44,042 nt of DNA from positions 1 to 44,042 of the IMG/VR virus record IMGVR_UViG_3300012205_000001; one strand, given 5' to 3'. This DNA comes from a virus. The notes beneath the pieces were generated by a model that saw only the letters and a program-made list of their open reading frames with translations, was not told the DNA's origin and ran no database searches. Position 1 is the stretch's first letter, and each line of letters starts with the position of its first letter. Positions 1-43,502 of the stretch are shown here, in pieces. Position numbers and translations under genes: made by a program.

Positions 1-123
1 CGCTCGATGGAGCGTCCGGCCTCACGCGACCATTGGCCGGTCAATCGTCAGCAGCGGGGCGCCCGGATGGATGATCGCCCCCACCGATCGCGCAGATTGA
101 CCCCACTGCTCGATTTGCGTCTC
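1..123. repeat. Terminal direct repeat; identical copy at 43920..44042 (circular assembly overlap or terminal redundancy)
   Basis: Read directly: the first 123 nt of the window recur exactly as its last 123 nt. The repeat contains the 3' end of the minus-strand peptidase gene. Confidence 0.85.
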
Positions 124-542
124 CAGCCACCGGCGCCAGTCGTCATCACCGCCGGCGGGAAACGACCCAGCTTGCAGCAGATGCAGGACCGCGGGAAGCT
201 CCAGGTGCGGAATCTCGAACGATAGGGCTCGCAGACCGAGGCCGGTTCCGATCTCCTGGTACCGCTGCCACATGCCGGCGTCTGGCTCGGACCACGTCCA
301 GCCGTCGTCGACCTTGAAAACGTAGTCCACCGCCAGCCCGTATTGATGGAAGCTCTCCCAAGCGCGGGCCCGCGTAACGTGCCGGCCCGGCCGACGGCGT
401 AAAGCTCGGCTTGGCGGAACGGTGTGCGGCAGCATTCATAGGGCTGCAGCGGAATGCCGGCCTTATATAATTGCAGGTCGAGCTCGGGCAGTAAACCGCG
501 CAGCGCCGGGTGCAGAGTCAAGGTGCTAGGGTCGCGCGCCAT
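22..542 (-). CDS. Peptidase M15 (VanY / L-Ala-D-Glu peptidase-like) endolysin, apparently split by a frameshift near 360-380
   Basis: Track ORF 22..435 carries SFHQYGLAVDYV (SxHxxGxAxD zinc-binding signature) and FEIPH (ExxH). The N-terminal half RTPFRQAELYAVGRAGT lies in the overlapping frame of ORF 48..620, beginning at the Met at 540-542. The span 22..542 is 521 nt, not a multiple of 3. Confidence 0.6.
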
Positions 543-1243
543 CAGCGCAGCCCACGGCGGTGGGTACGGGATAGCGGATCGGCGGCCTTGCGATCCATGC
601 GGGCCGCCATGTGGTGCCAATTCGGGTCGAGCTCGCGCCCGAAATCGCTGCTGATGAACCCGTCAGGATCGCGGATCAGCCGATAGCCGCCCCCAGTGCG
701 ACTCAAGCAGAATGGCGCATCGACCGTGTCGAGATACGTGTAGGGCCGTGCTGCGCCGGCGACGAACCACGCCGGCAGGACGAAATCCGAGACCCAGATC
801 CGCCGCGTCTCGGATCCGATCGTCACCTCGATGTCGTAGCGGTCCCGCTCGCATGGGTCGCACAATTCGCGCGCCACCTGACGCCCGTCGGGCATCGGCA
901 GCCAGAGGTCGCACCTGGGGTCGGCGCGCAGCTCCAGGGCCTCATGGCTGAGCGTGGTAGCGTCCAGCGGGTCGACTGATGCCAAGACACGGCCGAACGC
1001 GAGGCCAGCCACGTCGTCGTGAAACCCAAGGGCGCCCATTTTGTCGATGTCATCGAGGATCGCCAGCGGCCAGAAGGTCCCCGCCGGCAGCCCGCTGAGC
1101 GTCGCGTAGGACCGCACGGGCCACGGCTCCTCGGCGAAGGCCGGTCCCCAATGCTGCTCCATCTGGATGTTGATGGCCCGCGCCTGGAACGCAAAATCGG
1201 CCGGCGTCAGGAGGCGGCTGCTGGCCTGGCAGGCGATTTCCAT
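542..1243 (-). CDS. Hypothetical protein (233 aa) between lysis membrane proteins and endolysin
   Basis: Track ORF; its stop overlaps the start of the downstream peptidase gene (TGATG) and its start overlaps the upstream stop, suggesting translational coupling. No motif recognised. Confidence 0.45.
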   Translation of the reverse strand: MEIACQASSRLLTPADFAFQARAINIQMEQHWGPAFAEEPWPVRSYATLSGLPAGTFWPLAILDDIDKMGALGFHDDVAGLAFGRVLASVDPLDATTLSHEALELRADPRCDLWLPMPDGRQVARELCDPCERDRYDIEVTIGSETRRIWVSDFVLPAWFVAGAARPYTYLDTVDAPFCLSRTGGGYRLIRDPDGFISSDFGRELDPNWHHMAARMDRKAADPLSRTHRRGLR

Positions 1244-1848
1244 CAGGGCAACTGATGGGTCGAGAGCCAGATTTCGGCATGATCGATCTTGAGCTGCGCG
1301 AGCCCATCCTCAGCGGCGAACGACTTGTCCTGGATCGCTTCGCCACGCAGCTGCGCGACCGCCTTGTTGACGACGCAGAGGCTGTATTTGATCGCCAGCG
1401 CTTCGAGCTGCGCGACGTAGTCCTTGACGACCAGCGCGGTTTCGACCGCAGGAAGGATCCCGGGCGACACCGCCTTCGCGCAATCGACGACGACGGGCGT
1501 CACATGGGCGCAGGAGGCCAGCGTCAGGAAGGTGATGATATACAGCTTTGCAAATAGTTGCATGATGAATCCTTTCACTCGGCTTCCAACGCGAGACGTA
1601 GTTCGTTCCACGTGTCTGGATCCGGTGATCGCCCACGCGACGCTGCGTAGCCGTTCCTCGACATCGAGGAGGGCGGCGGCCCGTCCTTCCGGGTCCAGTC
1701 CATCCGCACGGCGCGCAATCTCCAGCAGCGTGCATGTGATTCCACCAAATTGACGGGCATAGGCGTGGATGACGTCATACTCTGCCGACCTCCCATCATG
1801 ATGCGGAACCGGATCGCGAGACGGCGTAGAATGGTCATCATCGACCAC
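1243..1848 (-). CDS. Hypothetical protein; C-terminal part (from internal Met near 1563) has a lipoprotein-type signal peptide, possible outer-membrane lysis lipoprotein (o-spanin-like)
   Basis: Internal sequence MQLFAKLYIITFLTLASCAHV is a hydrophobic stretch ending in lipobox L-A-S-C, preceded by an AAAGGA-like RBS. Track ORF starts at GTG 1848. May be two genes (1564..1848 and 1243..1563). Confidence 0.4.
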   Translation of the reverse strand: MVDDDHSTPSRDPVPHHDGRSAEYDVIHAYARQFGGITCTLLEIARRADGLDPEGRAAALLDVEERLRSVAWAITGSRHVERTTSRVGSRVKGFIMQLFAKLYIITFLTLASCAHVTPVVVDCAKAVSPGILPAVETALVVKDYVAQLEALAIKYSLCVVNKAVAQLRGEAIQDKSFAAEDGLAQLKIDHAEIWLSTHQLP

Positions 1849-2100
1849 TGGCGCCTCTCGGTGGCGTGATCGCCTTCAGCACGGCAATCTCCTCCCCGTG
1901 TGTCCCCAGTCGCGCCATCGCATGGGCCAGCGTCGCGGCCAGGGCGGCATCACCCTCCTTCGACTCGCGTCGCATCTCGGTCACCTCGTTCTTGAGGCTC
2001 GTGAGCTCGGTCTCGAAGCGACCCCATATCCTCGCCAGCGCGAGGCCATAGATGATGAAACCGGCACCGGTCGAAAAGGCACCGATGTCGGCAATCGTCA
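1838..2100 (-). CDS. Small membrane protein: N-terminal TM helix plus coiled-coil region (holin/antiholin or i-spanin-like)
   Basis: From internal ATG: MTIADIGAFSTGAGFIIYGLALARIW, then charged helical ELTSLKNEVTEMRRESKEGD. The track ORF 1838..2290 extends upstream from a TTG with an Arg-rich, implausible N-terminus. Confidence 0.4.
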
Positions 2101-2283
2101 TGGCGACGTCACAACCGATGTCTTGGCCACCGCGCGGACCGACGGGCTGAGCGCCAGCGCGGCGCCGCCTATGGCCTGACAAAGGATGATGAGCCATGTC
2201 GGCGCTCCGCCCGCCACGGTGGCGATGGCGACCGATTGAGCGGCGCCGCCCAGGGCCAACATGATGCGATCGAAAGGTCCCAT
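2098..2283 (-). CDS. Small two-TM membrane protein, holin-like (61 aa)
   Basis: MGPFDRIMLALGGAAQSVAIATVAGGAPTWLIILCQAIGGAALALSP: two hydrophobic segments and a short polar C-terminus. Stop overlaps the ATG of the next membrane protein. Confidence 0.4.
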   Translation of the reverse strand: MGPFDRIMLALGGAAQSVAIATVAGGAPTWLIILCQAIGGAALALSPSVRAVAKTSVVTSP

Positions 2284-2286
2284 GAT

Positions 2287-2532
2287 TCAATCTCCTTTGT
2301 GGCTGCGAATCACGAGCGTCCGTTCATCGAGTATAGCGATGTTCTTTGCGCAATGGGTGACACGCTTTTCAAGCTCATCCATATCGCTCTCGATTTTCGT
2401 CAGACGCGTCTCTGAGGCCTCAAGATGGGACGTCGATCGACCATCACGCCAAACCCGCATCAGGACCATGACGGCGAAATTGGCGAGGAGTCCCACGACA
2501 GCGACGACTGCGGTGATGCCCTCCCAGTGCAT
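2287..2532 (-). CDS. Small membrane protein with N-terminal TM helix and coiled-coil (lysis-associated)
   Basis: MHWEGITAVVAVVGLLANFAVMVLMRVW then charged ETRLTKIESDMDELEKR. First gene of the small-membrane-protein run, downstream of motif copy D. Confidence 0.45.
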   Translation of the reverse strand: MHWEGITAVVAVVGLLANFAVMVLMRVWRDGRSTSHLEASETRLTKIESDMDELEKRVTHCAKNIAILDERTLVIRSHKGD

Positions 2533-2545
2533 TTATCTCGCACCC

Positions 2546-2577
2546 CGTCACCTGCCAGCAAAGCTGGGTCCTGTCAC
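2546..2577 (-). promoter_or_regulatory. Copy D of conserved 32-bp bipartite motif (GTGACA-N17-CAGGTGACG on minus strand) upstream of the lysis cassette
   Basis: Read directly; same length and spacing as copies at 6812..6843, 25473..25504 and 27706..27737. Confidence 0.4.
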
Positions 2578-4601
2578 GCGGTGAAGCTATCGGAGCGCCA
2601 GCGCACCAGAAAGCGCGTCTCCCATATTTCCCCACGCCGAAAAGTCGCCGCGCGGGTGCAGCCCTGGTAACGCACTTCGCTAATCCCACTCGTCGGCCAG
2701 GCGTAGCTGTCGGGGCGCTCCAGCACATCGCTGAATCGCTGCCCATCGCCCAGCGCATCGCGCATGACGGATTGCCGGTCACCGCCCCCCGCGTCGCCGC
2801 CGCCGCGCTGATACGCGACCCGAATGACGATCGTCGCCTCCCAATAGGCCTCCCCGATGGCCCGATTGCGCATCACGGGCGTGATGGCTTCGACGTCGGT
2901 GAAATAGTCGCCGTCCATCTTGCTGAGCGGCTCTTTGTCGAGTGTGAATCTGCAGCCGGACCGCAAACCGCCATCCGTAGAACTGGCCGACATGACAGCC
3001 GCCAGGCGGGCATCGATCTGAGTCAAGACGGCCGACAGGGGACAGAAGCGATTGTTGGTGGGCCCCGGCGTCACGCCGCCGCTGGTTGTGACGATCCCTG
3101 GACTGGCGGTCAGCCCGACGCCGCTGAGCGCCACCGCAAGCGACGGAACGATGCTGCCGGCCGCTGCGGTCGCGGCTGCGCCCGAGACGGCGACCGCTGT
3201 GCCGAACTGCAGGGTGCCGGCCAACGCGCTAGCCGCGTTGCCGGTGAGCGCCAGGGCCATCGCCAGTGCCACGCTGCCGACCCCGGCGGTCGCATTGCTC
3301 CCGACCGCCGGTACGTCGGTGGATGGCGTGACCGAGCCCGCCGAGGCAGTCGCCGCCTGGCCGGATAGTGCCACGGTGACATCCGAGCCGGCCGCGACCG
3401 TCGCGGCCCAATTGAGGGGGAAACGCGGCCGCCCGCCGATGGCCTGGGGTCGGCCGGGCCCGCGCAGAATAAACGGTACCGCTGCCGTGCGGCTGTCGGA
3501 GAGCAGGATCTGCGACCCAACATTACCGGCCGCCGTAGTGGCGGCCGCGCCCGTCAATGCGACATCGATGGCCGGCACCACCGTGCCGGCCGATACGGTC
3601 GCCCCCACGCCCGAGACCGGAACGGCCGTCGATGGTATGACGGTTCCGGCAGCGGCGGTTGACGCCTGGCCGGTCGCGGGGACATCGATCGCAATCGTGA
3701 CCGACCCTGCCGCCGTCGTGGCGGCCGAGCCCGTCAGTGCGACTGTGACGTCGCCCCCCGTCGGACTGGTCCATGTCAGGGGCTTAGCCGACGGCCCCAG
3801 GATGGGCATCGGCTTGCCGGGGCCACGCAGCAGGAAAGGTACCGCCATGGTGCGGGTGTCGAAGCCGGTGACCGGCGCGAAGAGATAGTTTTTTCGCGTC
3901 ATGGCCCGCATCAGGCGCGGCTTGGCGAGCGTCACATTTGGAACCGTCCGGATGATCGGTGCCCGCTCGCGAATGCTCAGGGTGCCGGTGTTGACGCCGA
4001 GGCCAGCGACCAGATCAACGCCGTTCAGATCATTGAGCGGATCGAGGAGGAGTGCATCATCACGGCGAATCTTGGTGAAGTCGGCGCCCCGGGCCAGCGC
4101 ATCGATCTCGTCCGGCCTGAGGCAGGTTCTCCACCAGCCGAATTGCTCTAACCAACAATCGGTCGTCGCGATCGTTGCATCAGTCCGCATCCAGAGCCGG
4201 ATATTGCTGGTCGTCGTCTGGCTGAAAGTACCGACCGGCGAACTGCTGGCCTGCTGTCGCCCGTCGATGTAGACGCGCATTGCCAGTGCGGCGCCGTCGT
4301 AGACCTGACAGACATGGATCCAATTCTTGTTCGTCCACTGAGCGGTCGTTGCCACCACCTGGCTACCGCTGCCGGTGATGACTTGCGCGCGGACGAGGTT
4401 GAATGCGCTGGCCGAGGGCGTGCCGACTGTAAAATCACCACTGACCGTCCCAACTCCGCGAGCGATGAATGCCCACTGAGCGACCGGCGTTATCTGAGGC
4501 TGGACCCAGATAGAGAGCGTATGGGACGTCGAGATGTCGAAGCGCCCATTGTTCGCATATTCGCGAAAGTTGGAACCGGAGGCGCCATTGTAGAGCGACA
4601 C
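2574..4601 (-). CDS. Tail fibre / receptor-binding protein: N-terminal LamG-like jellyroll domain, internally duplicated Ala/Thr/Gly/Val-rich shaft, C-terminal ~130-aa domain paralogous to gene 18515..19000
   Basis: N-terminus NKNWIHVCQVYDGAALAMRVYIDG resembles the LamG/concanavalin-like core. Two ~100-aa segments both begin AVPF(L/I)LRGPG. C-terminus aligns with the 18515 protein (FxLDKEP, VAYxRGGGDA, EVRYQG, GEIWExRF, WRSD). Starts at GTG. Confidence 0.6.
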   Translation of the reverse strand: MSLYNGASGSNFREYANNGRFDISTSHTLSIWVQPQITPVAQWAFIARGVGTVSGDFTVGTPSASAFNLVRAQVITGSGSQVVATTAQWTNKNWIHVCQVYDGAALAMRVYIDGRQQASSSPVGTFSQTTTSNIRLWMRTDATIATTDCWLEQFGWWRTCLRPDEIDALARGADFTKIRRDDALLLDPLNDLNGVDLVAGLGVNTGTLSIRERAPIIRTVPNVTLAKPRLMRAMTRKNYLFAPVTGFDTRTMAVPFLLRGPGKPMPILGPSAKPLTWTSPTGGDVTVALTGSAATTAAGSVTIAIDVPATGQASTAAAGTVIPSTAVPVSGVGATVSAGTVVPAIDVALTGAAATTAAGNVGSQILLSDSRTAAVPFILRGPGRPQAIGGRPRFPLNWAATVAAGSDVTVALSGQAATASAGSVTPSTDVPAVGSNATAGVGSVALAMALALTGNAASALAGTLQFGTAVAVSGAAATAAAGSIVPSLAVALSGVGLTASPGIVTTSGGVTPGPTNNRFCPLSAVLTQIDARLAAVMSASSTDGGLRSGCRFTLDKEPLSKMDGDYFTDVEAITPVMRNRAIGEAYWEATIVIRVAYQRGGGDAGGGDRQSVMRDALGDGQRFSDVLERPDSYAWPTSGISEVRYQGCTRAATFRRGEIWETRFLVRWRSDSFTA

Positions 4602-4613
4602 GCGCTCTCCCGC

Positions 4614-5090
4614 CTATTGCGCTTCCGGGTTATTCCCGATCCAGCGAAGCCAATGATTGGAACCGGTCGTATCGGTATTGACGGCAGTGTCATGATAGAA
4701 CATGACGCCGAAGCTGGGGCCGGGGTTCACGATGAACGCCTCGACATAAACCACGTCGCCCGTCGCTGGCGATGCCAGATTGCGCGCTACACCGATGAAT
4801 TCCGCATTGGCGCGTGTCAGCGCGCCGGCGGTCGCGGCGGCATTATCCGATCGGTGGGCCGTCCCGCCAGCATCACCGCGAATAGCATAGAGATAGAAGC
4901 CTTTGTTGCCGGTCGGTGAAGTGCCCTGCTTGAATTTTCCAAAGACGTGAATCAGAGAGTAACGCGTCACTGAATTATCGACCATGTCCGACTGTTGGCC
5001 AGCAAACGTCGTCGATGATGCGATATTCGCGATGGTGATCGTGAAGGCCGCGGATGCGGAGTATGTATCGAGGATGGCTGATTTTGCCAT
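4614..5090 (-). CDS. Hypothetical tail/fibre-associated protein (158 aa); same frame as the downstream fibre, separated by one TAG
   Basis: Track ORF. Both ORF starts are congruent mod 3, and only 4 sense codons lie between the TAG at 4614-4616 and the GTG at 4599-4601. Confidence 0.45.
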   Translation of the reverse strand: MAKSAILDTYSASAAFTITIANIASSTTFAGQQSDMVDNSVTRYSLIHVFGKFKQGTSPTGNKGFYLYAIRGDAGGTAHRSDNAAATAGALTRANAEFIGVARNLASPATGDVVYVEAFIVNPGPSFGVMFYHDTAVNTDTTGSNHWLRWIGNNPEAQ

Positions 5091-5534
5091 TTAGGTCGGC
5101 ACCCCCGTCGCGCGGCCCATGTCCCAAGTCGTAATCACAGTCCCGGTGCCGAATAAGATTTCGGCGCGACTCGCCGAGCGGTTGACGAATGCGATCAGAT
5201 TGGCGCGCGTGGTTGGCGCCGTGAGAGACGGAAACATGGCAAGAAAATTGGCCTGGACGGTCGCATTGCTGGCATCGATTTGCATGCAGGCCACATAAGA
5301 CATAAAAAGATTCTGGTTCGGTATTGATAGCAGAACGAACTCAGATTGAACGATTTGATTCATCAGCTGATAGCCGGCAATCACACCGGACCCAATCGTT
5401 TCGCTCGAACCACCGAGCGCGTTGATCAGCGCGACTCGTTGGGCGACGGTCTTGCCCGCATAGCCGAGCAGCTTCGGATCGTTGGTGATCTCGTTGCCGA
5501 GTGCCGTCAGCTGGCCGTTCGTGAGATCAGCCAT
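5091..5534 (-). CDS. Hypothetical tail module protein (147 aa)
   Basis: Track ORF, tightly packed with neighbours on the same strand; no motif recognised. Confidence 0.45.
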   Translation of the reverse strand: MADLTNGQLTALGNEITNDPKLLGYAGKTVAQRVALINALGGSSETIGSGVIAGYQLMNQIVQSEFVLLSIPNQNLFMSYVACMQIDASNATVQANFLAMFPSLTAPTTRANLIAFVNRSASRAEILFGTGTVITTWDMGRATGVPT

Positions 5535-6110: not shown

Positions 6111-6569
6111 CTATGCGATGCGAACGAGACCATTCGATGCGTCGTTGACCGGCATCGTGATCGTGAAGGTCCCGGCGGTGATCGTCTGACTGCCGAACGT
6201 GTAGACACCGATGGCCCGATTACTCTGCGTGCTGTTGTAGATCGTCACGCAATCGAACGCGGTCGTCAGCGTCACGGTCGTGTAGACGATGCTCGCGCTT
6301 GGCGTCCAGAATGCCGTTGTGCCGCTCGTCGTCGGCGCAGTTGCGTTCGTGACTGTGACGCCACCGGCCGAATATCCGGTGCCACTGACTTCGTTCGTTG
6401 CGCTGTAGGCCGTCGTCGCAGCGCCCTGGGTACCGGCGGTGGCGACATAGAGTGCCGCCTTCACGGTATCGGCGCCCGTGCCGCCACGCGTGACGGTCGT
6501 GCCCAGCGCGTGGAGTGCGGTCATCGCCTCGGACTTGAACGACGTGCAGATTGCCTGAACATTCGCCAT
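6111..6569 (-). CDS. Hypothetical tail module protein (152 aa), Thr/Ala/Gly-rich
   Basis: Track ORF; composition typical of fibre/baseplate proteins. Confidence 0.45.
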   Translation of the reverse strand: MANVQAICTSFKSEAMTALHALGTTVTRGGTGADTVKAALYVATAGTQGAATTAYSATNEVSGTGYSAGGVTVTNATAPTTSGTTAFWTPSASIVYTTVTLTTAFDCVTIYNSTQSNRAIGVYTFGSQTITAGTFTITMPVNDASNGLVRIA

Positions 6570-6572
6570 CGG

Positions 6573-6806
6573 TCAGCCCCCTACGGTCCCGGTCAATGCC
6601 GCCGCCAGCTGGCCGGCCTGCTTGAGCACCACATGAGCCGACCGGTGGACGATGAGATCACTACCCGGCAGCCGATACTCGACCCAATTCGTCAACTCGT
6701 TGTCGTTTTCGACCTGGCCCGTCAGCTTGACCAGCATCTCCTCGGGCACAGCGCACAACACGACGCCGCCGGGCTCCGGAGCGTCGAATTCATTCGGCTG
6801 ACCCAT
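6573..6806 (-). CDS. Hypothetical small protein (77 aa)
   Basis: Track ORF; ATG at 6804-6806 sits 5 nt downstream of motif copy A, whose AGGTGA serves as the Shine-Dalgarno. Confidence 0.4.
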   Translation of the reverse strand: MGQPNEFDAPEPGGVVLCAVPEEMLVKLTGQVENDNELTNWVEYRLPGSDLIVHRSAHVVLKQAGQLAAALTGTVGG

Positions 6807-6811
6807 ATAAG

Positions 6812-6843
6812 GGTCACCTGCCCAAGTCGAGACGGCCTGTCAA
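6812..6843 (-). promoter_or_regulatory. Copy A of conserved 32-bp bipartite motif (TTGACA-N17-CAGGTGACC on minus strand)
   Basis: TTGACAGGCCGTCTCGACTTGGGCAGGTGACC on the minus strand; 24 of 32 positions identical to copy B, including CGACTTGGGCAGGTGACC. Confidence 0.45.
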
Positions 6844-6994
6844 CAGCACTGAACGGCAGGTCAGCTTGCGGGAATTTTCGGGAGGTGCGAACGTTTCAGA
6901 TGCAGATCAGCTCCCGGCCTCATGAACCGTGGGTGGCGCTGGCGTCCCCGGCGCTGGGTCTGCCTAACCAGGGGACGGATGAAGGGACGGCATC

Positions 6995-7384
6995 ATGATG
7001 AAGCAACTCGGATTGATCGGGGTTTTGCTGACTGCTGGCTGCTTCGGCAGCCTGATTCTGATGACGGTCGGATGCGGAACGATTGATGAGCAGCCGACCG
7101 ATGAGAACGGGCAGCCCCTCACCTATTGCCCGCAGGATATCCCGGTGAACGTTTTCTCAGCTGGTGGTTGCCAGAATTGGATTGGCCCGAATCGTCCTCA
7201 ATGGCCAGCCGCCGGCATGAAGAAAGATGGTCGGTTCTGCGCGACGTGCTCATGGTTCACGAAGCCCAGCCCTGAAAATGGATTCACGCCTGGACCGACG
7301 ATTGGAATTGCCGATTGCATGATTGGCGGTCCGGATGCCTATCGTGGCGTACTCTGCGTCGCCTCCTGCGATGAATGTCAGTAG
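6995..7384 (+). CDS. Cys-rich secreted protein or lipoprotein (129 aa), opposite-strand insert (moron-like) in the tail module
   Basis: MMKQLGLIGVLLTAGCFGSLILMTVGCG is a signal-peptide-like N-terminus with Cys after the hydrophobic core; about 10 Cys in the mature part. GAAGGGA RBS before the ATG. Only plus-strand gene within 1-42 kb. Confidence 0.55.
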   Translation: MMKQLGLIGVLLTAGCFGSLILMTVGCGTIDEQPTDENGQPLTYCPQDIPVNVFSAGGCQNWIGPNRPQWPAAGMKKDGRFCATCSWFTKPSPENGFTPGPTIGIADCMIGGPDAYRGVLCVASCDECQ

Positions 7385-8815
7385 CTAGAACGGCGCGCCG
7401 AACGCGATCAGCGTGAAGGCTCCGATTCTGACAGAGTCAGTCGTGCCGTTCGATTTCGCGCAGAGCGCGATCCGGTCATAGGCTGCCCCAGCCCCAGCGT
7501 AGCCGAGAAAATAGGGCGCGCTGGTGAAATTCAGGCTCGCGGTGCTGGAACTCGCGACGTCGGGATACCATTTGAACGTTGCTCCGCTGATGGTCGGCGC
7601 GTTGGTAATGGCCGTCGCGGAGCTGGACATTGAGCCGGCCGAATCGCGGTTCGCCACGCCGATAGTACCGGTGTCCGTCGCGCCGTTCATCGCCGCATAT
7701 ACGAAGACGTAGATCCGTACCTGCGTATAGAGCCCCGCCGCCGAGTATCTCAGCGGCAGCGTGATGGCCGGCAAGCTGGCGGCGAAGCTGGTGCCGCCAG
7801 AGCCATAGGACTGGTCAAAGATGTAGCGGAAGTTGCTCTTGCTCGTCGTGAAGGCGACGTAACCGGTGCCGGTTCCGGGTCCGATCGCCGACCAGCCGAC
7901 CTGACCGCGGCGATATGTCAATGTGTCGACATAGTTGACTCGCATCTTTTGAAGAGTATCGCTTGAGTCGGCGGTCGCTGTGATGGCGACTACTTCGCCG
8001 CCCTGATGAAGCCGCTGCGTCCCGACGTATGGGCTCTTGCCCGCGACGGTGCCGGTCGAATCGATGTAGGCGCCAGTACTCGTCTGATCGATGAGGTCCT
8101 GGGGTTGCTGATAGACCATGCCGGCATATAGGATCGGACCATTCGAAAAGGCACCATTCTCCGGTCCTGAAAAGAATTGCATCTCGGCATTCGGCGCCAC
8201 AAAACCGCGCGCACTGATGATTGTGTCGGTCTGGATATTCGTCGGATATGGAATCTGCGGCATCGTCGTATAATTCAAATAGTTCGCGAACGTCGTATCG
8301 AAATATTTCACGCCCCAGCCCTGATTCGCCTGTTGGTTGAGCGGCGGTGAGGCCCAATGGATTTGCGCGCCTTCGGCCACATTGCCGAAATTACGCCCGC
8401 AATAGACCTGCCGGAACGCGGGCCCATAGTTCGGGTCAGAAGGCAACAGCACATGGCCAGACGTCGTCGAGACGCCGCCGGTGAAGAAGTTGAAGTAAGG
8501 TTTGCCCGAGAAGGCAAGTCGATTAAGGGCATCAGTTTCGCGCTTGATCAGCGACGCGAGTGCCGGCGCGCCGTTCCGACCCTGGGTCCTCAGTGTGTCG
8601 TCGAACAGGATCGGTGCTGCGCTGCCGCCGACCGCAATCGTCGCGCCCTGTGAGCCCGGCGTGATGCCGGTAGATGTGCCGGATCTGCCGCCAGAGCCCG
8701 TGTCGCCGCCCACACCGGATGTCCGGCCCCTGGCGCTGCCTGGGGTTGAGCCCGGCGTACGGATCAGGGCGGGGCCGAAGCGGCGGAGGCGGGGGATCAT
8801 TCGTAGCCGAACCAA
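7385..8815 (-). CDS. Tail fibre-like protein (476 aa) with Gly/Ser/Thr-rich N-terminus
   Basis: Track ORF; N-terminal GDTGSGGRSGTSTGITPGSQG low-complexity stretch, then beta-rich sequence. Its stop abuts the stop of the plus-strand gene (TAGCTA). Confidence 0.5.
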   Translation of the reverse strand: MVRLRMIPRLRRFGPALIRTPGSTPGSARGRTSGVGGDTGSGGRSGTSTGITPGSQGATIAVGGSAAPILFDDTLRTQGRNGAPALASLIKRETDALNRLAFSGKPYFNFFTGGVSTTSGHVLLPSDPNYGPAFRQVYCGRNFGNVAEGAQIHWASPPLNQQANQGWGVKYFDTTFANYLNYTTMPQIPYPTNIQTDTIISARGFVAPNAEMQFFSGPENGAFSNGPILYAGMVYQQPQDLIDQTSTGAYIDSTGTVAGKSPYVGTQRLHQGGEVVAITATADSSDTLQKMRVNYVDTLTYRRGQVGWSAIGPGTGTGYVAFTTSKSNFRYIFDQSYGSGGTSFAASLPAITLPLRYSAAGLYTQVRIYVFVYAAMNGATDTGTIGVANRDSAGSMSSSATAITNAPTISGATFKWYPDVASSSTASLNFTSAPYFLGYAGAGAAYDRIALCAKSNGTTDSVRIGAFTLIAFGAPF

Positions 8816-19860: not shown

Positions 19861-20319
19861 TCACTCAGTGGGGAACCCGATGAAGGTGCTGACCGTCGGC
19901 GCGGTGCCGGACGGGACCAGAGAGCGGGTGACGAAGCGGCTGAAGTTGTCGCCCGAGACGTTGAAGGCCTCGGTGCTCAGGACGCGCAGAGCACTGACCT
20001 GCGAGCCGCCCGCGCCGGTGGCGGCGATGGGCTGCCCCTTGTTCATGGCGCCCACCCACAGCCAGCGCGGCGAACTGGCAAATACGCCTTGGTCGGCGTA
20101 GCCCAACAGGTCGATGCGGCAGGAGACCGCACCCACCGTGTCGGCGTAATCCACGGCCACCCAGATGCGGTTGGCCGCCATGAGCGGGGCCACGCCGCCG
20201 GTCATGATGTCAGACAGCGCCTTGCCGGCCGCGCCACCAGACGGATAGGCGGTCGTGGTCGTTGAAGCGTTCAGGTCCTGGACCCAGCGGATCCCGCCTT
20301 CTGCGGTTTGGTACCCCAT
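19861..20319 (-). CDS. Hypothetical structural protein (152 aa)
   Basis: Track ORF; start abuts the stop of the upstream glycosyltransferase-like gene. Confidence 0.45.
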   Translation of the reverse strand: MGYQTAEGGIRWVQDLNASTTTTAYPSGGAAGKALSDIMTGGVAPLMAANRIWVAVDYADTVGAVSCRIDLLGYADQGVFASSPRWLWVGAMNKGQPIAATGAGGSQVSALRVLSTEAFNVSGDNFSRFVTRSLVPSGTAPTVSTFIGFPTE

Positions 20320-21152
20320 TACGCGGCCTCTTTGCGCTCGGCCTTGGCCTGCGCGTCAGCGAGCAGTTGCGGCACATGGTCCAGCGCCACGAACCCGTTG
20401 ATATAACGGACCTCGGTCGCGCCGACGGCGCCGCGCAGAGCGGCGGCCTGTTCCTTGAGCGTCGGCGAATCGTCCTTCCAGCTGTCTTCCCAGTGCTGCC
20501 AAGAGAAGGTAAGTGGACCAGTGTCCTTCATGTGCACGGTGCGAAAGCGCGGGTCGGCCAGCACCTTGAAGCCGGCCGCGCGCAGCCGCGTGCAGAAATC
20601 GTAGTCTTCGCCCACCTCGGACACGCTGCCGGTGAACGTTCGCTTGATGGCGAAGCGAAACCAGGGCAGGTCGTCGCGCGTGGCCTTGAGCGCCGAGACG
20701 CGGATCATCATGAAGCCCGTCGCCACCGTCGCTACTTCGACCGGCTGGAACGGAAAGCCGCTGATGACATGGCAGCACTCCTCCGGGTGCTCCTCATGCG
20801 CCACGGTCACCGTGGGGACCATGGGGCGCTCGCGCAGGTAGACCGCGCCGATCGCGCCCACCTCGGGATGCTGATCGAACAGCGCGTGCCAGACATCCAG
20901 CGGGTTGCCGCCGGGCCCGCCCGCCTCAATCCATAGATCATCATCATGCATGACCAGAAAGTCGTACCCGTCGTTGACCGCCTGGTCGGCGATTCGAGTG
21001 CGCGCCATCTGCACCGGGCCACACGTGAACGCGAAGCTGTCCCGGCCACGCTCGAACGTGCGGCAGCCCATCTCCATGTCGCGCATGCTTTTGACGTACG
21101 CGAGGGTTGGGTGTCGCCCGCTCGGCGTGGCGTAGAACAGCCGGTCGGCCAT
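20319..21152 (-). CDS. Glycosyltransferase-like protein (GT-A fold, DxD) embedded in the head-tail module
   Basis: DFLVMHDDDLWIE (DxD-type motif) and GEDYDFCTRLRAAGFKV, reminiscent of family-2 glycosyltransferases. Lies between capsid-proximal and tail genes on the same strand. Confidence 0.5.
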   Translation of the reverse strand: MADRLFYATPSGRHPTLAYVKSMRDMEMGCRTFERGRDSFAFTCGPVQMARTRIADQAVNDGYDFLVMHDDDLWIEAGGPGGNPLDVWHALFDQHPEVGAIGAVYLRERPMVPTVTVAHEEHPEECCHVISGFPFQPVEVATVATGFMMIRVSALKATRDDLPWFRFAIKRTFTGSVSEVGEDYDFCTRLRAAGFKVLADPRFRTVHMKDTGPLTFSWQHWEDSWKDDSPTLKEQAAALRGAVGATEVRYINGFVALDHVPQLLADAQAKAERKEAA

Positions 21153-28073: not shown

Positions 28074-28282
28074 AGGCGGCCCATCAGCATGCGCGCCGGC
28101 GGCCGGATGCAGATGTCGCTCACGGCCCGATGCGCGACTCCCATGCTGCGCTCGACCTTTTCGTCGCTCGTCATGGCGCCATGCTGGACCACAACCTTGA
28201 CGTGTCCGTGGTGCTGGCAGTCAGGGCAGGCCCAGGGCAAGAACCATTCGATCGGGCCCTTTTGCGGCATGGTGCCTACCAC
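27971..28282 (-). CDS. Hypothetical small protein with Cys/His cluster (103 aa)
   Basis: PWACPDCQHHGHVKVV suggests a metal-binding motif; stop/start is close to the upstream glycosyltransferase. Confidence 0.35.
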   Translation of the reverse strand: MVGTMPQKGPIEWFLPWACPDCQHHGHVKVVVQHGAMTSDEKVERSMGVAHRAVSDICIRPPARMLMGRLWRFELGRPIWMLKKGETQETFHPEKWPPWGKTN

Positions 28283-29148
28283 GGGATTTCACCAAAGCGA
28301 CTCAGCATCTGTCGGTGCTCCTCCTCGCTCTGCTGGCGCGCGCCAAGGTCGCCCTGAATCATCGCCATCCCGCCGGCGGGATTGGTGGTCCGGATAACGA
28401 GTGGCTCACGGTCGCCAGAATTGACGATAACTGAATGCCGAGAGATATTCTGCAGCCAGCCATGGCGGACGGTCAATGGTTGGCCATAAAAGTAAACCAC
28501 GGGCGCGTCCTCGTCTACTAGGTGCGCGCGCTTCACGCCGTGCTTGTTCGCGCGCCCCAGCCATTCGGTGTCGACGTGGAATCGAAATCCCTCGTCCATC
28601 GGGCCGATCTCGTCCCATACGGCGCGATGCATGAGCCAGCCCGACGGCGTGGCGAAGTCATTGACGCGCTGGAAGTTGCCGGCCACGTCGACCTCGCGCT
28701 GATTACTGGTCACCATGTCGACGCGGGAGAGCCACGGGATTTGTGCAGCCAGCTTTTCGGGGCACCAGATGTCATCGTCTTCCAGGAACGCCAGCACGTC
28801 GCCGGTGGATGCGCGCACAGCGGCATTGACGGCGGCAGCTTGGCCGCCCGCGCCAGCGAATACCTGCGTAACGCCCTTGAAGCGCTCAGGTAGCAGCCCT
28901 GTGTTCAGCTGATCGCGAAAGGCTTGCATACCCATCGTCGCTGCCGCGATCGGATTGGCTGCGTTGACCTTTATCGGCGAATCCATTCCCACGACGAATT
29001 CAATTTCATGTTCGCCCGCGGCCGACTGCCGGTGCACCGACATCAGCGCGCGGTCGAGATAGAGATTCCCAGTCTCGCTCATAGGATTGACCTGCAAGCG
29101 ACTAGGTGTAATGACGCTGATTTTCACCGGCACACATCCGGAATCCAA
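28276..29148 (-). CDS. Family-2-type glycosyltransferase (GT-A fold)
   Basis: N-terminal ISVITPS, then GQAAAVNAAVRASTGDVLAFLEDDDIW (nucleotide-sugar binding region with DxD-type EDDD), typical of GT2 enzymes. Confidence 0.65.
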   Translation of the reverse strand: MDSGCVPVKISVITPSRLQVNPMSETGNLYLDRALMSVHRQSAAGEHEIEFVVGMDSPIKVNAANPIAAATMGMQAFRDQLNTGLLPERFKGVTQVFAGAGGQAAAVNAAVRASTGDVLAFLEDDDIWCPEKLAAQIPWLSRVDMVTSNQREVDVAGNFQRVNDFATPSGWLMHRAVWDEIGPMDEGFRFHVDTEWLGRANKHGVKRAHLVDEDAPVVYFYGQPLTVRHGWLQNISRHSVIVNSGDREPLVIRTTNPAGGMAMIQGDLGARQQSEEEHRQMLSRFGEIPW

Positions 29149-29422
29149 TGGTCATCGTCAACGCTGGGCTGCCATGGTTCGGACGTCTCAAGACGCGGCG
29201 GGGCGCACTGAAGACAGGTACAGCCAACAGAATGCGGGGATGTCATCAGCGCGTTTTCTTTGACGGCCAGGCGCAGGCGGCCAAGTGCATGATCGATTGT
29301 GTCTGCGGGTCGCTTCTCAGCAACGGACGTTGACATATGCGGCAGCGGGCCGTCTACCGTCTGTTTGCCATGCCACCATCCATCTTGATGAGGCCATTTA
29401 CATCCAACAAATCCACACATGA

Positions 29423-30868
29423 TCATCGCTGCCGCTCCAGTTCTTCGACGTACGGTCGATAGATAATCTCTCCCTGCCGCTTGGTCACTTGGTATTCGGG
29501 CCGCGTGATGACCGTGTGGCCATCGGCCAATTCGCGGTATCCCGAATAGTGAAAAGCCACGAGCGAGCGGTTGCCGAAGTACGGAACGCCGCCCCGGACA
29601 TCAAGCGCGCGGCCATGGATCGCCCACGGGCCAAGGTTTGCTCCTGGAGCCATAACCACATGCGCGCCATGCTTTTCCGGCCACGCGTCAAGGTATTTTT
29701 GGTCGCCATAACGCAACTGCCTTTCGGGAATTGGGACCTGCTCCACACGGTCATAACACCACTCTCGGCATTGCGCCGCCCACTCTTCGACAATCTCACG
29801 ATTCGCGATATAGACGAGGCCCACATTGTATTTTCCAAATACCTCATGCGTCTCAACTGTCGGCCCCGGTAACCCGTGCGATGCGCTGGCGAAGTTGTGC
29901 GGGAACACTGCCGCAGGTGCGGCGCCAATTTCTGCAAAGACTGGCTCTGGCGATGAATGGAACATTATGTCAGCATCGACGTAACAGACGGGACGGCCGG
30001 TCGACTTCATGACCTCTGCGATCCACCACGGACCGAGCGTCCACATCGTCTCGACCCTGGTGCGTTCCGGTCCAGGCAGGATGCCGATCGTGCCCGGCAG
30101 CTGCGTCGGGCATCCAACTGATTCTGCCCAATCACGCACGCCTTCGTCCCACGACAGAATATGCAACTCGAACGGCTGGCAGTGTCGCAGCATTGAGGCG
30201 TGGAGCGCCTTGAGGCGAGTGAGATAATTGCTATCGGCATATGTGGCGTAGACGCGCGGCCGCGCACAGACATAGGTCGTCGATCCACCGTCAGCTCGGA
30301 AAAAATCGCGACCTTGGAATCCAGTCTCCGCCATCGCGGCCATGAGGTCCATATGATTGACGTCCCAGGCCCGGAACGTCTGCCCGTAGCCATGCGTCTC
30401 GGTGCGTTTTGTCGCTATCGCCAGCGGCACACGATGAAGAATCACCCAGCGTCGCGACCGCGCGCATAGATCGGCAAGATGTATCTTCCAGTCGTCGGCA
30501 TGCATGAGGGCGCAGCCGTCGATCACGACGTCAAACGAACTCGGCAATCCGCATAAATCAAATGGCGGACGATCATGGCTGGCGAAGCAAACGAATTCGC
30601 TCTCCGGGTATCGCTCGAGCGCAACCTTGATCGCCGCTGGGCTGATGTCACAGCCGCCATAGCTTCGATATGCTATCCCCTGCCGATCCAGGACCTCACG
30701 GTTGTACCCGCTCGCGCAGCCGACCTCCCATAGCTCGCCGGGGCATTGCGTGGAGCGCACCGCATCGGCCAGGGCGCGAAACTGGATCGGCAGCGGGTCT
30801 TGCTGCAGCTGCTGATCTACCAGTTCACGCTGGGCGGCGGCGATCTCAGGCAGCATCCAGGGGTTCAC
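29423..30868 (-). CDS. Two-domain protein: N-terminal class I SAM-dependent methyltransferase-like, C-terminal nucleotide-sugar transferase-like
   Basis: LWEVGCASGYN (glycine-rich motif I-like) and DVVIDGCALMH in the N-terminal half; CYVDADIMF (DxD-like) in the C-terminal half. Confidence 0.5.
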   Translation of the reverse strand: MNPWMLPEIAAAQRELVDQQLQQDPLPIQFRALADAVRSTQCPGELWEVGCASGYNREVLDRQGIAYRSYGGCDISPAAIKVALERYPESEFVCFASHDRPPFDLCGLPSSFDVVIDGCALMHADDWKIHLADLCARSRRWVILHRVPLAIATKRTETHGYGQTFRAWDVNHMDLMAAMAETGFQGRDFFRADGGSTTYVCARPRVYATYADSNYLTRLKALHASMLRHCQPFELHILSWDEGVRDWAESVGCPTQLPGTIGILPGPERTRVETMWTLGPWWIAEVMKSTGRPVCYVDADIMFHSSPEPVFAEIGAAPAAVFPHNFASASHGLPGPTVETHEVFGKYNVGLVYIANREIVEEWAAQCREWCYDRVEQVPIPERQLRYGDQKYLDAWPEKHGAHVVMAPGANLGPWAIHGRALDVRGGVPYFGNRSLVAFHYSGYRELADGHTVITRPEYQVTKRQGEIIYRPYVEELERQR

Positions 30869-31872: not shown

Positions 31873-32090
31873 TAGGTCGTCTCGCCATCGGCAGTCGGCC
31901 CGATGCTCATCGAGAAATTTGGGCCTGATGCCTTGATTATGGCCCGCACCTGGACTTTCGCGGTCGCGCTATACCAGACGCCGACGAGCGGCGTGGCGAG
32001 TTGCTCCCTGGTGGCGGCCGGAATATCGTCGCCACAGCCAAATACCAGCGGCCCGCACCAAAACAAAATCATCAACATCAATGCTCTCAT
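31689..32090 (-). CDS. Secreted protein or lipoprotein (about 133 aa from MRALMLMILFWCGPLVFGCG)
   Basis: Hydrophobic signal-like N-terminus followed by Cys; track ORF 31689..32120. Confidence 0.4.
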   Translation of the reverse strand: MRALMLMILFWCGPLVFGCGDDIPAATREQLATPLVGVWYSATAKVQVRAIIKASGPNFSMSIGPTADGETTYWITGELDHDGRHLNAAVIINGAARQCIGFASADSQRMFFGIRDEAMPEAYSDAWTFVRTR

Positions 32091-34267: not shown

Positions 34268-35290
34268 CTAGCAGAAGAGCCCACGCTGCGCGGTCCGCGC
34301 GCGCGCCAGCTGCGCGTACTCGGGCGAAAGCTCGATGAGGATCCACTGCCGGCCGAGCGCCTCGGAGACCTGGCCGACGGTACCGCTGCCGCCGAACGGA
34401 TCGAGCACGATGCCGCCGGCGGGGCAGCCGGCGAGAATGCAGGTCTCGACCAGCTTGCGCGGAAAAGTCGCGAAGTGGGCGCCGCCGTAGGGCTCGGTTG
34501 CGATCGTCCAGACGGATCGCTTATTGCGCTCGTCGACCAGACCAGCGATGGCCCCCGAGAAGGAGGCGTTCTGCTTGACGCGGAAGCCGGCGCCGCGCCC
34601 GAACCGCGTCGACGGCTTGAGGCCCTGATCGTCTCGCCCTTCGTCCTTGGGGCCGGCCTTGGGGTTGACGCCGTCGCCGCGCGGATGAGCTCTGCCCGTG
34701 ACCGGCTCCTTGATCGCCGCAGCGTCGTAATAGTACCGCTCGCTCTTCGACAACAGGAACACGAACTCGTGCGCCTTCGTCGGACGATCGGTCACCGCCT
34801 CGGGCATCTGGTTTGGCTTCGACCAGATGATGTCGCAGCGCAGGTACCAGCCATCGGCCTGCAGCGCGAAGGCGACGCGCCAGGGAATGCCGACCATGTC
34901 CTTCGGCTTGAGGCCGTGGATCGGTATGCGGTTCGGCTGGGTCATCGGGCCCATGGCCGCCATCGCCGTGTGCTTGCCGGCGTGCGATCCGTCGCGCAGG
35001 GCCCGCGTCTTCTTGCGCAGGATCGCCGCGCCGGTTGCGTAGCAGTCGCCGAGGTTCAACCAGAGCGTACCGTCTGGGCGCAGCGCGCGCCGCACCTCGC
35101 GGAACACCGCCACCAGCTCGGCCATATACTCCTCGGGCGTCGCCTCGAGTCCGATCTGGTCGGCCACGCCGTAGTCGCGCAGGCCCCAGTACGGCGGGCT
35201 CGTTACCACGCAGTGGATCGAGTCGTCTGGGATCTCGCGCAGCAGAGCACGGCAGTCGCCGACGTGGATCTCGCGGGTGGCCAGCGTCAC
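34268..35290 (-). CDS. DNA methyltransferase (N6-adenine or N4-cytosine, beta-class amino-methyltransferase)
   Basis: Catalytic motif TSPPYW near the N-terminus and SAM-binding DPFGGSGT near the C-terminus, the order typical of beta-class enzymes. Confidence 0.85.
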   Translation of the reverse strand: MTLATREIHVGDCRALLREIPDDSIHCVVTSPPYWGLRDYGVADQIGLEATPEEYMAELVAVFREVRRALRPDGTLWLNLGDCYATGAAILRKKTRALRDGSHAGKHTAMAAMGPMTQPNRIPIHGLKPKDMVGIPWRVAFALQADGWYLRCDIIWSKPNQMPEAVTDRPTKAHEFVFLLSKSERYYYDAAAIKEPVTGRAHPRGDGVNPKAGPKDEGRDDQGLKPSTRFGRGAGFRVKQNASFSGAIAGLVDERNKRSVWTIATEPYGGAHFATFPRKLVETCILAGCPAGGIVLDPFGGSGTVGQVSEALGRQWILIELSPEYAQLARARTAQRGLFC

Positions 35291-43133: not shown

Positions 43134-43502
43134 TTGGGCGCGGATCAGCCGCGCGCCGAATGGCCTCCCAGGCCTGCAGCAAAGGCAGGGGAAGCTGGTC
43201 CGCTGATGGCGTATCAAACCGACGCCACCCAAGCCGCCATCGTCGCCGCGCTCCGCGCTGCAGGATGTAGCGTCTGCCACATTGCGAGCGCCACCGGTCA
43301 GGCCGGCATTCCGGATCTGCTGGTCGGTCGCCGCAGCGTGAACTACCTGCTGGAGGTCAAGGTCCGCGTCGGCAAGCGCAATCCACGGTCAGCCAGTCTG
43401 TCGCCGGGCCAGGTCGAATGGCACCGGAATTGGCGGGGCGCTCCGGTATGGATCGTCACGACGCCAGAAGAGGCGCTCCGGGCGGTCGGGGTGCGGATAT
43501 GA
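43134..43502 (+). CDS. VRR-NUC domain nuclease-like protein (probably starts at MAYQTDATQ near 43206)
   Basis: GIPDLLVGRRSVNYLLEVKVRVGKRNPRSASLSPGQVEW matches the VRR-NUC pattern (G.PDL ... ExK ... Q..W). Confidence 0.5.
   Translation: MGADQPRAEWPPRPAAKAGEAGPLMAYQTDATQAAIVAALRAAGCSVCHIASATGQAGIPDLLVGRRSVNYLLEVKVRVGKRNPRSASLSPGQVEWHRNWRGAPVWIVTTPEEALRAVGVRI

Follow-up and report, generated by a model that had tools for sequence, protein, structure and literature searches.

An antisense gene for a cysteine-rich lipoprotein at the end of a phage tail block: a conserved cassette with a possible role in superinfection exclusion

Introduction

What is a lone gene for a cysteine-rich protein doing on the opposite strand, at the very end of the tail block, in a phage whose genes otherwise run in one direction over some 42 kb? 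The question is raised by the IMG/VR virus record IMGVR_UViG_3300012205_000001, analyzed here over its positions 1 to 44,042, with the whole of this stretch of 44,042 nucleotides being referred to as the window. The gene in question encodes a protein of 129 amino acids (aa) and abuts, stop to stop, the gene for a distal tail protein (Table 1). From its sequence features and from comparison with relatives, we conclude that it is a genuine gene for an exported lipoprotein precursor, and that its product appears to be a divergent member of one undescribed, phage-restricted, and fast-evolving family, with a small residual doubt as to whether it is an analogue rather than a homologue. The comparison also indicates that the family, though a conserved cassette within the lineage of the window, is mobile between lineages. 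As to function, the position, the export, and the evolutionary rate suggest a periplasmic lipoprotein of superinfection exclusion, or of “lytic conversion,” a proposal to which we give about an even chance of being correct. Phage biologists will recognize the architecture and the likely role, while the family, the synteny rule, and the evolutionary rate are new.

The Gene and Its Product

The window corresponds to essentially the whole of a phage genome of approximately 44 kb, and the same tail protein is also encoded on a contig of 44,058 bp. On one strand, the gene order runs from the early and replication genes, on the right, through the portal and an SU10-like capsid protein and the tail genes, to a putative lysis cassette on the far left. 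The stretch at 6807..7384 (578 bp) is the largest gap in the window free of minus-strand open reading frames (ORFs), and the lipoprotein ORF is the sole plus-strand ORF with a positive coding score (0.13 log-likelihood per codon) in such a gap. The initial annotation, made from the sequence alone, had called it the only plus-strand gene within some 42 kb, and this is what we find, as a second possible plus-strand gene is present only at 43134..43502, outside of those 42 kb. The rest of its description of the gene is likewise accurate: 129 aa with about ten cysteines (exactly ten, at residues 16, 27, 45, 59, 82, 85, 108, 121, 125, and 128), an upstream region of 188 bp with a ribosome-binding site, and the TAGCTA junction with the tail gene.

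The length of the ORF is not in itself evidence of a gene, because an ORF of at least 129 codons is found in 21% of Markov-simulated 578-bp gaps of the same composition. Its composition is more telling: cysteine makes up 7.8% of the lipoprotein versus 1.4% of the phage proteome (binomial P = 1.4e-5), and only about six of the six-frame segments in the whole 44-kb window pass the lipoprotein filter. The GC content of the gene is 56.7%, compared to 56–66% for the other genes, and the GC content at third codon positions (GC3) is 0.62, compared to 0.61–0.86, while its codon adaptation score is the lowest among all genes, by a small difference, and yet the best of the six frames. The comparison of GC and codon usage that the initial annotation had proposed as a check thus places the gene at the low edge of the range, mildly deviant, but does not set it far apart. 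Copies 100% identical in DNA are present in three other metagenome assemblies, one of them with an in-frame deletion of 66 bp (Table 1), and, owing to this identity, no ratio of nonsynonymous to synonymous substitution rates (dN/dS) can be derived from the window's own copies. The deletion copy (L001, NCBI GCA_009772215.1, WNFP01464179.1), in which GCC microhomology flanks the deletion and an odd number of cysteines is left, may represent a variant that is tolerated, an allele that is defective, or an artefact of assembly.

The N-terminus of the protein consists of MMK followed by a hydrophobic run, and two lipoboxes, LLTAGC16 and LMTVGC27, both satisfy the PROSITE PS51257-style rule for lipoproteins (a positively charged n-region, a hydrophobic h-region, a lipobox [LVI..][AST..][GAS]-C with its cysteine at approximately position 15–35, and no charge just before the box). 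Lipoprotein prediction, another check proposed in the initial annotation, is thus positive for both boxes, and, of the description of the protein as secreted with a signal-peptide-like N-terminus, the export signal stands but simple secretion does not: the lipoprotein signal points to a membrane-anchored rather than a simply secreted protein. As to the lipidated cysteine, C27 is the favoured prediction. The segment LMTVGC27GTIDEQ aligns with LMTLVGCGTADQQ of the related locus L010, and cleavage at C27 leaves eight cysteines, an even number, as in most relatives; however, MAFFT alignment A3 pairs C16, and not C27, with the lipid cysteine of the relatives. The mature domain would be of about 100 residues (~102), with approximately 12% proline, and its eight cysteines are predicted to form four disulfides. 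No C-terminal transmembrane segment is found in the lipoprotein. The protein's C-terminal motif conforms to a family-wide pattern, h-C-[VL]-x(2-5)-C-x2-C, where h is a hydrophobic residue.

The Antisense Slot in Related Phages

The relatives were surveyed by scanning an alignment of the tail protein against viral, genome, and metagenome collections and by anchoring the ends of the tail genes by tblastn, and 13 loci (designated here by L and a number) possessed enough downstream sequence to be informative. Relatives of the 476-aa tail protein are 36–56% identical to it. An antisense gene for a cysteine-rich lipoprotein is present in 12 of the 13 loci, in 11 of these directly at the stop of the tail gene, and the sole locus without it is the most distant relative (28% identity). 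All the positional counterparts satisfy the lipoprotein rule, and most possess exactly eight cysteines in the mature domain, in the arrangement C..C..Cx2-3C..C..Cx3-6Cx2C, with the last three at the C-terminus, a pattern that the window protein also follows. On four long contigs, the tail block of 661-295-965-216-476 aa is syntenic and is followed by one or two opposite-strand genes that overlap the last tail gene by 4 nt, in whose products a lipobox (LVVGC, LLVGC, LAIGC, or TLVGC) precedes a linker rich in Gly and Ala and, at the C-terminus, a cysteine-rich domain. The stop junction is TAGCTA in the window and in L024, and an overlapping CTAG in most relatives. With a lipoprotein gene in this position, and with the same framework, in 12 of the 13 relatives, the slot is ancestral to the lineage. 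The initial annotation had spoken of a gene inserted in the tail module, and had named its absence or disruption in close relatives with unchanged flanks as a finding that would refute its reading; the presence of the gene in these 12 loci speaks against a recent insertion.

Past the cassette, gene content varies among the relatives, with extra modules gained and lost. In many of them, a second antisense gene is located upstream of the gene for the cysteine-rich lipoprotein, and it encodes a ribbon-helix-helix-like N-terminal segment (RVTVRLxDxxLARLEAAA..) that runs into a lipobox and continues with a four-cysteine domain (CWSSMERPxCG...WLVAHGCP) and an acidic tail. This second gene evolves slowly (dN/dS 0.12–0.22); it is absent from the window, and in L020 it is split into two ORFs. 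Another variable element is a module of about 100 residues (..GRWVSRSSGEVIDL..YLGTQYLV..LTPGGLYDL), which is a separate, cysteine-free lipoprotein in L019 (5289-5657, minus strand) and is fused between the lipobox and the cysteine-rich domain in L010 (9218-9769, minus strand), a case of domains shuffled inside the cassette. The antisense block of some relatives is extended by an S-adenosylmethionine (SAM) methyltransferase (L009, 10217-12754, minus strand; L025, 2662-3381, minus strand), and that of L009 also includes a TROVE/Ro60-vWA protein, which is unusual as cargo in the tail region of a phage. A small membrane protein is co-encoded with the lipoprotein in L007, and some relatives carry helix-turn-helix (HTH) or CI-like genes. 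One locus, L013 (JAMQPK010000004.1), is a 1.9-kb contig binned in a metagenome-assembled genome of Vicinamibacterales (Acidobacteriota), and it is the only match in the collection of species-representative genomes. The hints as to the host from this locus (Acidobacteriota) and from the Mx4-like context of L030, described below (Myxococcus), are weak and conflicting.

Relationship of the Window Protein to the Family

Is the window protein itself homologous to these counterparts? Two loci bear most directly on this question. In L024, the closest relative in terms of the tail gene (54–56% identity), an opposite-strand cysteine-rich ORF, cut by the end of the contig, terminates in NVLCVASCDFPR, with VLCVASCD identical in the two proteins. 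The other locus, L030, came from a search of the viral collection with a shared 20-nt motif. This 62.9-kb contig encodes a lipoprotein of 192 aa with a lipobox LTLIGC, a long Gly/Thr/Pro linker, and the framework C-11-C-16-CxxC-16-C-16-CxxxCxxC, terminating in GGVLCVASCDECR. Eleven of its last 12 residues are identical to those of the window protein (E = 4e-5), and, since the DNA differs by synonymous changes within this conserved motif, constraint must act on the protein. A profile hidden Markov model (HMM) of the mature domains of ten relatives scores true members at 8–50 bits in leave-one-out tests; the cysteine domain of L030 scores 12.9 bits (one of 5000 shuffles as good), and, once L030 joins the profile, the window protein scores 8.9 bits (10 of 5000 shuffles).

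The gene in L030 is located in a phage of a different, Mx4-like kind, unrelated to the phage of the window, where it is antisense in the tail module, after a tape-measure-like and an Mx4 p61-like gene. In the cultured Myxococcus phage Mx4, p61 is followed directly by same-strand baseplate genes, with no antisense gene in between. The lipoprotein gene of L030 is adjoined by an ORF for a MazE/AbrB antitoxin-like protein and an ORF for a PIN-domain protein, together a VapBC-like pair (4351-5320, plus strand).

Outside of these loci, the family is nearly invisible to protein searches. A word-indexed search of 5.8 billion proteins matched only the deletion variant, and an exhaustive phmmer search of 1.84 billion representatives returned nothing real beyond it, and no bacterial homologue; two extra matches were rejected as spurious, as they come down to 28 residues of linker and signal peptide, matched more than once owing to repeats in the subject. 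A search with the family profile returned three proteins only, and neither phmmer nor profile searches join the window protein to the relatives. No match was found in Pfam, PHROGs, NCBIfam, or PADLOC for the window protein or for any member of the family, phmmer and family-profile searches of the PDB gave only chance matches (VEGF-D, flavivirus E; E ~1, in any case > 0.9), and blastn and tblastn against annotated phages and plasmids gave no match for the lipoprotein or for its tail neighbours. All contexts in which the family occurs are phage contigs.

Evolutionary Rate

Four pairs of loci allow the rates to be compared between the lipoprotein and its neighbours. For L017/L018, dN/dS is 0.13 for the tail gene, 0.35 for the gene of the cysteine-rich lipoprotein, and 0.12 for that of the second lipoprotein, and for L009/L022 the respective values are 0.17, 0.44, and 0.22. 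For the window and L024, they are 0.27 for the tail gene and 0.42 for the cysteine-rich lipoprotein. The most dramatic example is presented by L007/L021, with 0.15 for the tail gene, at 93% aa identity (over the adjacent tail C-terminus), and 0.50 for the cysteine-rich lipoprotein, at 60% aa identity, dN being 8.6 times higher in the latter. Over the four pairs, dN/dS of the lipoprotein gene is 1.6–3.3 times that of the tail gene. The lipoprotein thus evolves faster than its neighbours but is still under purifying selection, and, as every ratio is below 1, the gene is truly coding. Change, including the gain and loss of residues, is found in the loops, whereas the cysteines, the C-terminal motif, and the signal peptide are retained.

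Comparison with Known Systems and Proposed Role

Llp, Cor, and Rtp45 exemplify a type of small periplasmic lipoprotein that needs a disulfide for its function and whose gene lies next to that for a receptor-binding protein (RBP); they are made within minutes of infection and disable the receptor, which protects the infected cell and keeps progeny from being lost to debris (PMC9586334, PMC12685063, PMC8594841, PMC11990801, bioRxiv 10.64898/2026.03.26.714494). Like the window gene, the genes for Llp of T5 (T5.158) and for the related Cor of T1 and phi80 encode lipoproteins, lie beside a tail or receptor-binding gene, opposite to the late structural operon, and have a divergent region (PMC9586334; bioRxiv 10.64898/2026.03.26.714494). 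The annotation of T5 places llp on the opposite strand to oad (pb5) and the whole late operon, with a 79-bp region containing two divergent promoters. T5 is a phage of the virulent type, hence the term “lytic conversion.” The arrangements differ in that llp is head-to-head with oad, whereas the window gene is tail-to-tail with its tail gene. Another example is presented by small siphophages (Drexlerviridae and relatives), whose RBP loci encode exclusion lipoproteins such as Rtp45; these small periplasmic lipoproteins share a tail-tip/RBP locus with the cognate RBP, and they differ between phages with different receptors (PMC12685063, PMC8594841). However, the Rtp45 type is of approximately 6 kDa and is not cysteine-rich, and its loci co-vary with receptor specificity, whereas the window family diverges beside a 93%-identical tail protein. 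A different mode is represented by Ltp of Streptococcus phage TP-J34 and Sp of T4, exported or lipid-anchored proteins that block superinfection by binding tail-tip or ejection proteins. Such a mode would explain fast evolution independent of the phage's own tail protein, but the genes for Ltp and Sp are located in the lysogeny module or the early region, not next to a tail gene as here, and library searches show no sequence relation.

We favour, of the possible roles, exclusion at the level of the envelope. The lipoprotein would be transcribed from its own promoter in the 188-bp region, independently of and opposed to late transcription, and would thus be made before or apart from the virion genes. 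Export, followed by cleavage at a lipobox (probably ahead of C27), would leave a lipid-anchored domain of about 100 residues, whose eight cysteines would form the four disulfides in the oxidising periplasm; the result would be a compact, knot-like structure, anchored in a membrane of a diderm host. The envelope of the infected cell would be altered in such a way that further phage could not adsorb or inject, either because the lipoprotein binds the receptor or the entry machinery from the periplasmic side, as do T5 Llp, Cor, and Rtp45, or because it binds incoming tail-tip or ejection proteins, as do Ltp and T4 Sp. Progeny would also be spared from adsorbing to the debris of lysis, and the rapid divergence of the loops between the cysteines would reflect an arms race with the target. 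As the lipoprotein diverges beside a near-identical tail protein, the partner may not be the phage's own receptor, and may be, for example, the tail-tip or ejection proteins of rivals, or some other component of the envelope. As the linkage to tail genes is strict and holds in two phage lineages that are not related, a function in adsorption or entry is the more natural one.

A more far-reaching version of the proposal, and an unlikely one in our estimate, is that the family represents a class of effectors not described before, disulfide knots anchored by lipid in the periplasm and moving between unrelated phages, and that the obligatory antisense, stop-to-stop placement is itself functional. 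In such a scheme, convergent transcription would serve as a timer, with the effector made early and silenced by late read-through, and the hypervariable loops between the cysteines would track a target in the host or in a rival phage, perhaps one new to phage exclusion, in soil bacteria of the Acidobacteriota or Myxococcota type.

Several observations weigh against envelope-level exclusion, or against parts of the argument for it. As to expression, the promoter scan of the locus detects zero sigma-70-like sites (the sigma-70 consensus may not be the promoter type of the host), and the terminator scan detects one terminator-like match, located inside the coding sequence and no better than shuffles; as the stops abut, there is no intergenic room for a terminator. 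The upstream region matches no Rfam family and no tRNA, its RNA structure is not significant (z = 0.98), folding of the antisense strand gives nothing significant, and its repeats are only short and two-copy. After these negative scans, expression independent of the late operon, as suggested by the initial annotation, is deduced from orientation alone: a gene antisense to a one-directional late operon needs separate transcription, and the 188-bp divergent region presumably holds the promoter or promoters, but the sigma-70-like promoter and the terminator that could have backed the suggestion were not found. As to family membership, the window protein scores only 4.1–4.9 bits against the profile of the ten relatives, with 2.4–3.4% of cysteine-preserving shuffles as good (119 of 5000 at 4.9), and, its own score being weak, membership rests on transitivity via L030, on the framework, and on position. 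As to the likeness to known proteins, mature Llp is of 61 aa, with two cysteines and one disulfide (PMC9586334), versus approximately 100 aa and eight cysteines for the window protein, which is about 1.7 times larger; BLASTP of the window protein against T5 Llp reveals no similarity (E = 0.13), and searches of the PDB, where entries for Llp and Rtp45 exist according to the literature, provide no sequence link to Llp, Cor, or Rtp45, and no structural link. The AlphaFold2 model of the lipoprotein, built from four sequences, is unusable (pLDDT 41.6). Aspartate at position +2 after the lipid cysteine in several relatives makes the destination membrane uncertain, and a natural variant exists without 22 residues that include the framework cysteine C108. 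The lipoprotein also does not co-vary with the adjacent tail protein, unlike a strictly matched pair of an RBP and an exclusion protein, and the adjacent protein is only a candidate for the RBP. In its favour is the model of the 476-aa protein, a lectin- or carbohydrate-binding-module-like jelly-roll, typical of receptor-binding tail proteins; Foldseek comparison of this model to BFVD gives only TM-scores of ~0.2, to assorted tail fibre and structural proteins, which is consistent but not diagnostic. Against it, the C-terminus of the protein is its most conserved part, and the Laminin_G_3 protein encoded at 2574..4601 is another candidate for the RBP.

Alternative Explanations

If not exclusion, what else might such a protein do? 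Export, a lipid anchor, and a cysteine-knot-like framework would equally suit a periplasmic effector with another target, one that inhibits or masks a host envelope enzyme, transporter, secretion component, or defence component, or that protects against tailocins, bacteriocins, or predators, and so serves phage replication and not the exclusion of phages. Fast evolution with no co-variation with the adjacent tail protein is compatible with this, as is the presence nearby of accessory or conflict genes, such as the VapBC-like pair in L030 or the methyltransferase and the TROVE/vWA protein in the L009 block, and the frequent co-encoding of the second conserved lipoprotein. However, no similarity is found to defence and counter-defence families (PADLOC) or to inhibitor families, and the linkage to tail genes in both lineages fits adsorption or entry better, so that we consider such an effector rather unlikely. 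The classic moron is Bor of lambda, for which an opposite-strand lipoprotein gene is located among late genes and is expressed autonomously. The window gene resembles lambda bor in architecture, being also an opposite-strand lipoprotein gene among late genes, with its own upstream region, in a family that is mobile between unrelated phages; with the HTH or CI-like genes of some relatives, this could suggest a prophage-expressed moron that raises host fitness through resistance to stress, predation, or antimicrobials, with no role in the lytic cycle. We regard this as improbable: no integrase, repressor, or other lysogeny gene is present among the approximately 50 window genes scanned, no pair of a promoter and a terminator is detected in the window, the genome is transcribed in one direction, like those of virulent podovirus-type phages, and the gene is not sporadic but present in nearly all relatives, while its homologues occur on phage contigs only and not in bacteria. 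The initial annotation had called this the architecture of a classic moron, often associated with lysogenic conversion or superinfection exclusion. Within the lineage, neither a promoter and terminator of its own nor sporadic presence is seen, and it is only at the level of the family that the label applies, with L030 carrying the gene where Mx4 has none. Lysogenic conversion does not agree with the gene content, and T5-style “lytic conversion” fits better; superinfection exclusion has become the best-supported function, albeit one deduced from position, export, and evolutionary rate.

The remaining alternatives concern either the identity of the gene or a role in lysis. There may be a hotspot for recombination at the boundary between tail and late genes, where different small lipoprotein genes are taken up time and again, in which case the window gene would be an analogous but unrelated insertion. 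The weak score of the window protein against the profile (p ~0.02–0.03, where members reach 8–50 bits), the phmmer and profile searches that make no connection, and the different gene content after the cassette could all be explained in this way. On the other hand, the cysteines agree in number and order, their spacing ranges overlap, the terminal h-C-V-x-x-C-x-x-C is common to all, the stop junction is identical, and L030 acts as a bridge, linked both to the family profile and to the window protein; an analogous insertion seems distinctly improbable. Still less can be said for an accessory of lysis, an o-spanin-like outer-membrane lipoprotein or a lysis regulator, to which a proline content of ~12% in the mature part of a lipoprotein and the small membrane protein co-encoded in L007 might point. 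The gene is on the wrong strand and ~5 kb away from the putative lysis cassette, where a separate lipobox protein is encoded along with two proteins with transmembrane and coiled-coil segments, no i-spanin partner is adjacent or embedded, a unimolecular spanin would need the C-terminal transmembrane segment that is missing here, and eight framework cysteines with fast evolution would be atypical; this role is very improbable. Finally, a chance ORF in a non-coding spacer of 578 bp would agree with the ORF lengths in simulated gaps, with the lowest codon adaptation score, and with the failure to detect a promoter, but it is scarcely credible in view of the lipoprotein signal and the cysteine enrichment, of dN/dS below 1 in the counterparts, of the motif kept in L030 through synonymous changes, and of a natural deletion that is in frame, and such a spacer would be the largest non-coding gap of the genome. 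The spanin and chance-ORF readings were accordingly rejected, the former because the cassette is elsewhere and no i-spanin is present and the latter on the coding evidence, as was that of an assembly chaperone, because the export signal excludes a cytoplasmic role in assembly.

If envelope-level exclusion is indeed the function, then uncultured soil phages would possess a sequence-novel family of exclusion lipoproteins, larger and more disulfide-rich than Llp, Cor, and Rtp45. Their clear positional signature, an antisense location where the tail block ends, would offer a means of mining for further members, and the partner protein could point to the receptor or the entry route of these phages. 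Fast evolution beside a conserved tail gene, along with movement between lineages, would make the family a tractable case of an arms race between phages, or between phage and envelope, outside of the enterobacteria. If the function is a different one, a well-defined ORFan family with a strong synteny rule is still there to be explained.

Other Features of the Locus and the Genome

The features of the locus and of related loci are listed in Table 1.

Table 1. Positions of the lipoprotein gene, its elements, and neighbouring or related features (window coordinates unless a locus is given).
Feature	Position	Strand	Details
Cysteine-rich lipoprotein precursor, coding sequence	6995..7384	+	129 aa; starts ATGATG; stop TAG 7382..7384; best of six frames by coding score
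Predicted lipoprotein signal peptide, two lipoboxes	6995..7075	+	LLTAGC16 (Cys codon 7040..7042); LMTVGC27 (Cys codon 7073..7075)
Mature cysteine-rich domain, eight-cysteine framework	7127..7381	+	C45-13-C59-22-C82xxC85-22-C108-12-C121xxxC125xxC128
C-terminal motif GVLCVASCDEC	7346..7378	+	Most conserved part of the protein; identical in L030, VLCVASCD identical in L024
In-frame deletion (66 bp) in the L001/P0001 copy	7272..7339	+	Removes residues 94-115 (ENGFTPGPTIGIADCMIGGPDA), including framework Cys108
Divergent intergenic region	6807..6994	.	Exactly 188 bp, between the ATGs of the 77-aa gene (-) and the lipoprotein gene (+)
Shine-Dalgarno-like GAAGGGA	6981..6987	+	7 nt ahead of the lipoprotein ATG
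Abutting convergent stops TAG/CTA (TAGCTA)	7382..7387	.	Lipoprotein TAG 7382..7384 and reverse-strand TAG of the 476-aa gene 7385..7387
77-aa gene	6573..6806	-	Divergent from the lipoprotein gene; first late gene past the antisense cassette; GC3 0.79-0.81
Distal tail protein gene	7385..8815	-	476 aa (471 aa in the JGI call); last gene of the conserved tail block 661-295-965-216-476 aa
Putative lysis cassette	22..2532	-	~5 kb from the lipoprotein gene
Second antisense lipoprotein	L009 9493-9918; L017 3545-3973; L018 1963-2391; L020 1131-1612; L022 700-1119; L025 2193-2612; L011 6188-6643	-	

The tail neighbour has peculiarities of its own. In the window it carries an N-terminal low-complexity extension of approximately 57 residues, rich in Gly, Ser, Thr, and Arg (8645-8815, minus strand), that is absent from the relatives of 384–406 aa, and its closest relative (P0005, 715 aa, L024 240-2387) possesses, instead of this extension, an extra C-terminal domain of about 235 residues. 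On the other side of the lipoprotein gene, the product of the 77-aa gene has no family match in the library searches. It is followed by a gene for a 152-aa protein (phrog_644; 6111-6569, minus strand), with homologues 34–45% identical from a freshwater viral genome and from Roseobacter CRP phages; in these genomes, the homologues are located directly upstream of an annotated tail fibre gene.

The putative lysis cassette includes a weak match to Peptidase_M15_4 (22..435), a lipobox protein, MQLFAKLYIITFLTLASC, from an internal start within 1243..1848, and two proteins that combine a coiled coil with a transmembrane segment at the N-terminus (one at 2287..2532, the other at 1838..2290, likewise from an internal start). 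This left-end gene set resembles the holin/spanin type and suggests a diderm host. A third lipoprotein candidate, MRALMLMILFWCGPLVFGC|GDD.., with one further cysteine and no family match, is encoded in the early/modification region (31689-32120, minus strand).

Elsewhere in the window, glycosyltransferase and SAM-methyltransferase genes are located between the packaging and replication modules (28276-31872, minus strand), a GT2-like gene is found within the head/tail morphogenesis block (20319-21152, minus strand), and an N6/N4 DNA methylase is encoded at 34268..35290. Among the earliest genes is one for a 388-aa pentapeptide-repeat protein (Pfam E = 8e-58; 41107-42273, minus strand), which may be of the DNA-mimic or anti-restriction type. 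Two small ORFs of the early region (32087-32425 and 40716-41060, minus strand) are as rich in cysteine as the lipoprotein (11 of 112 and 10 of 114 residues), with no signal peptide and no family match, and these may encode zinc-binding proteins or be spurious.

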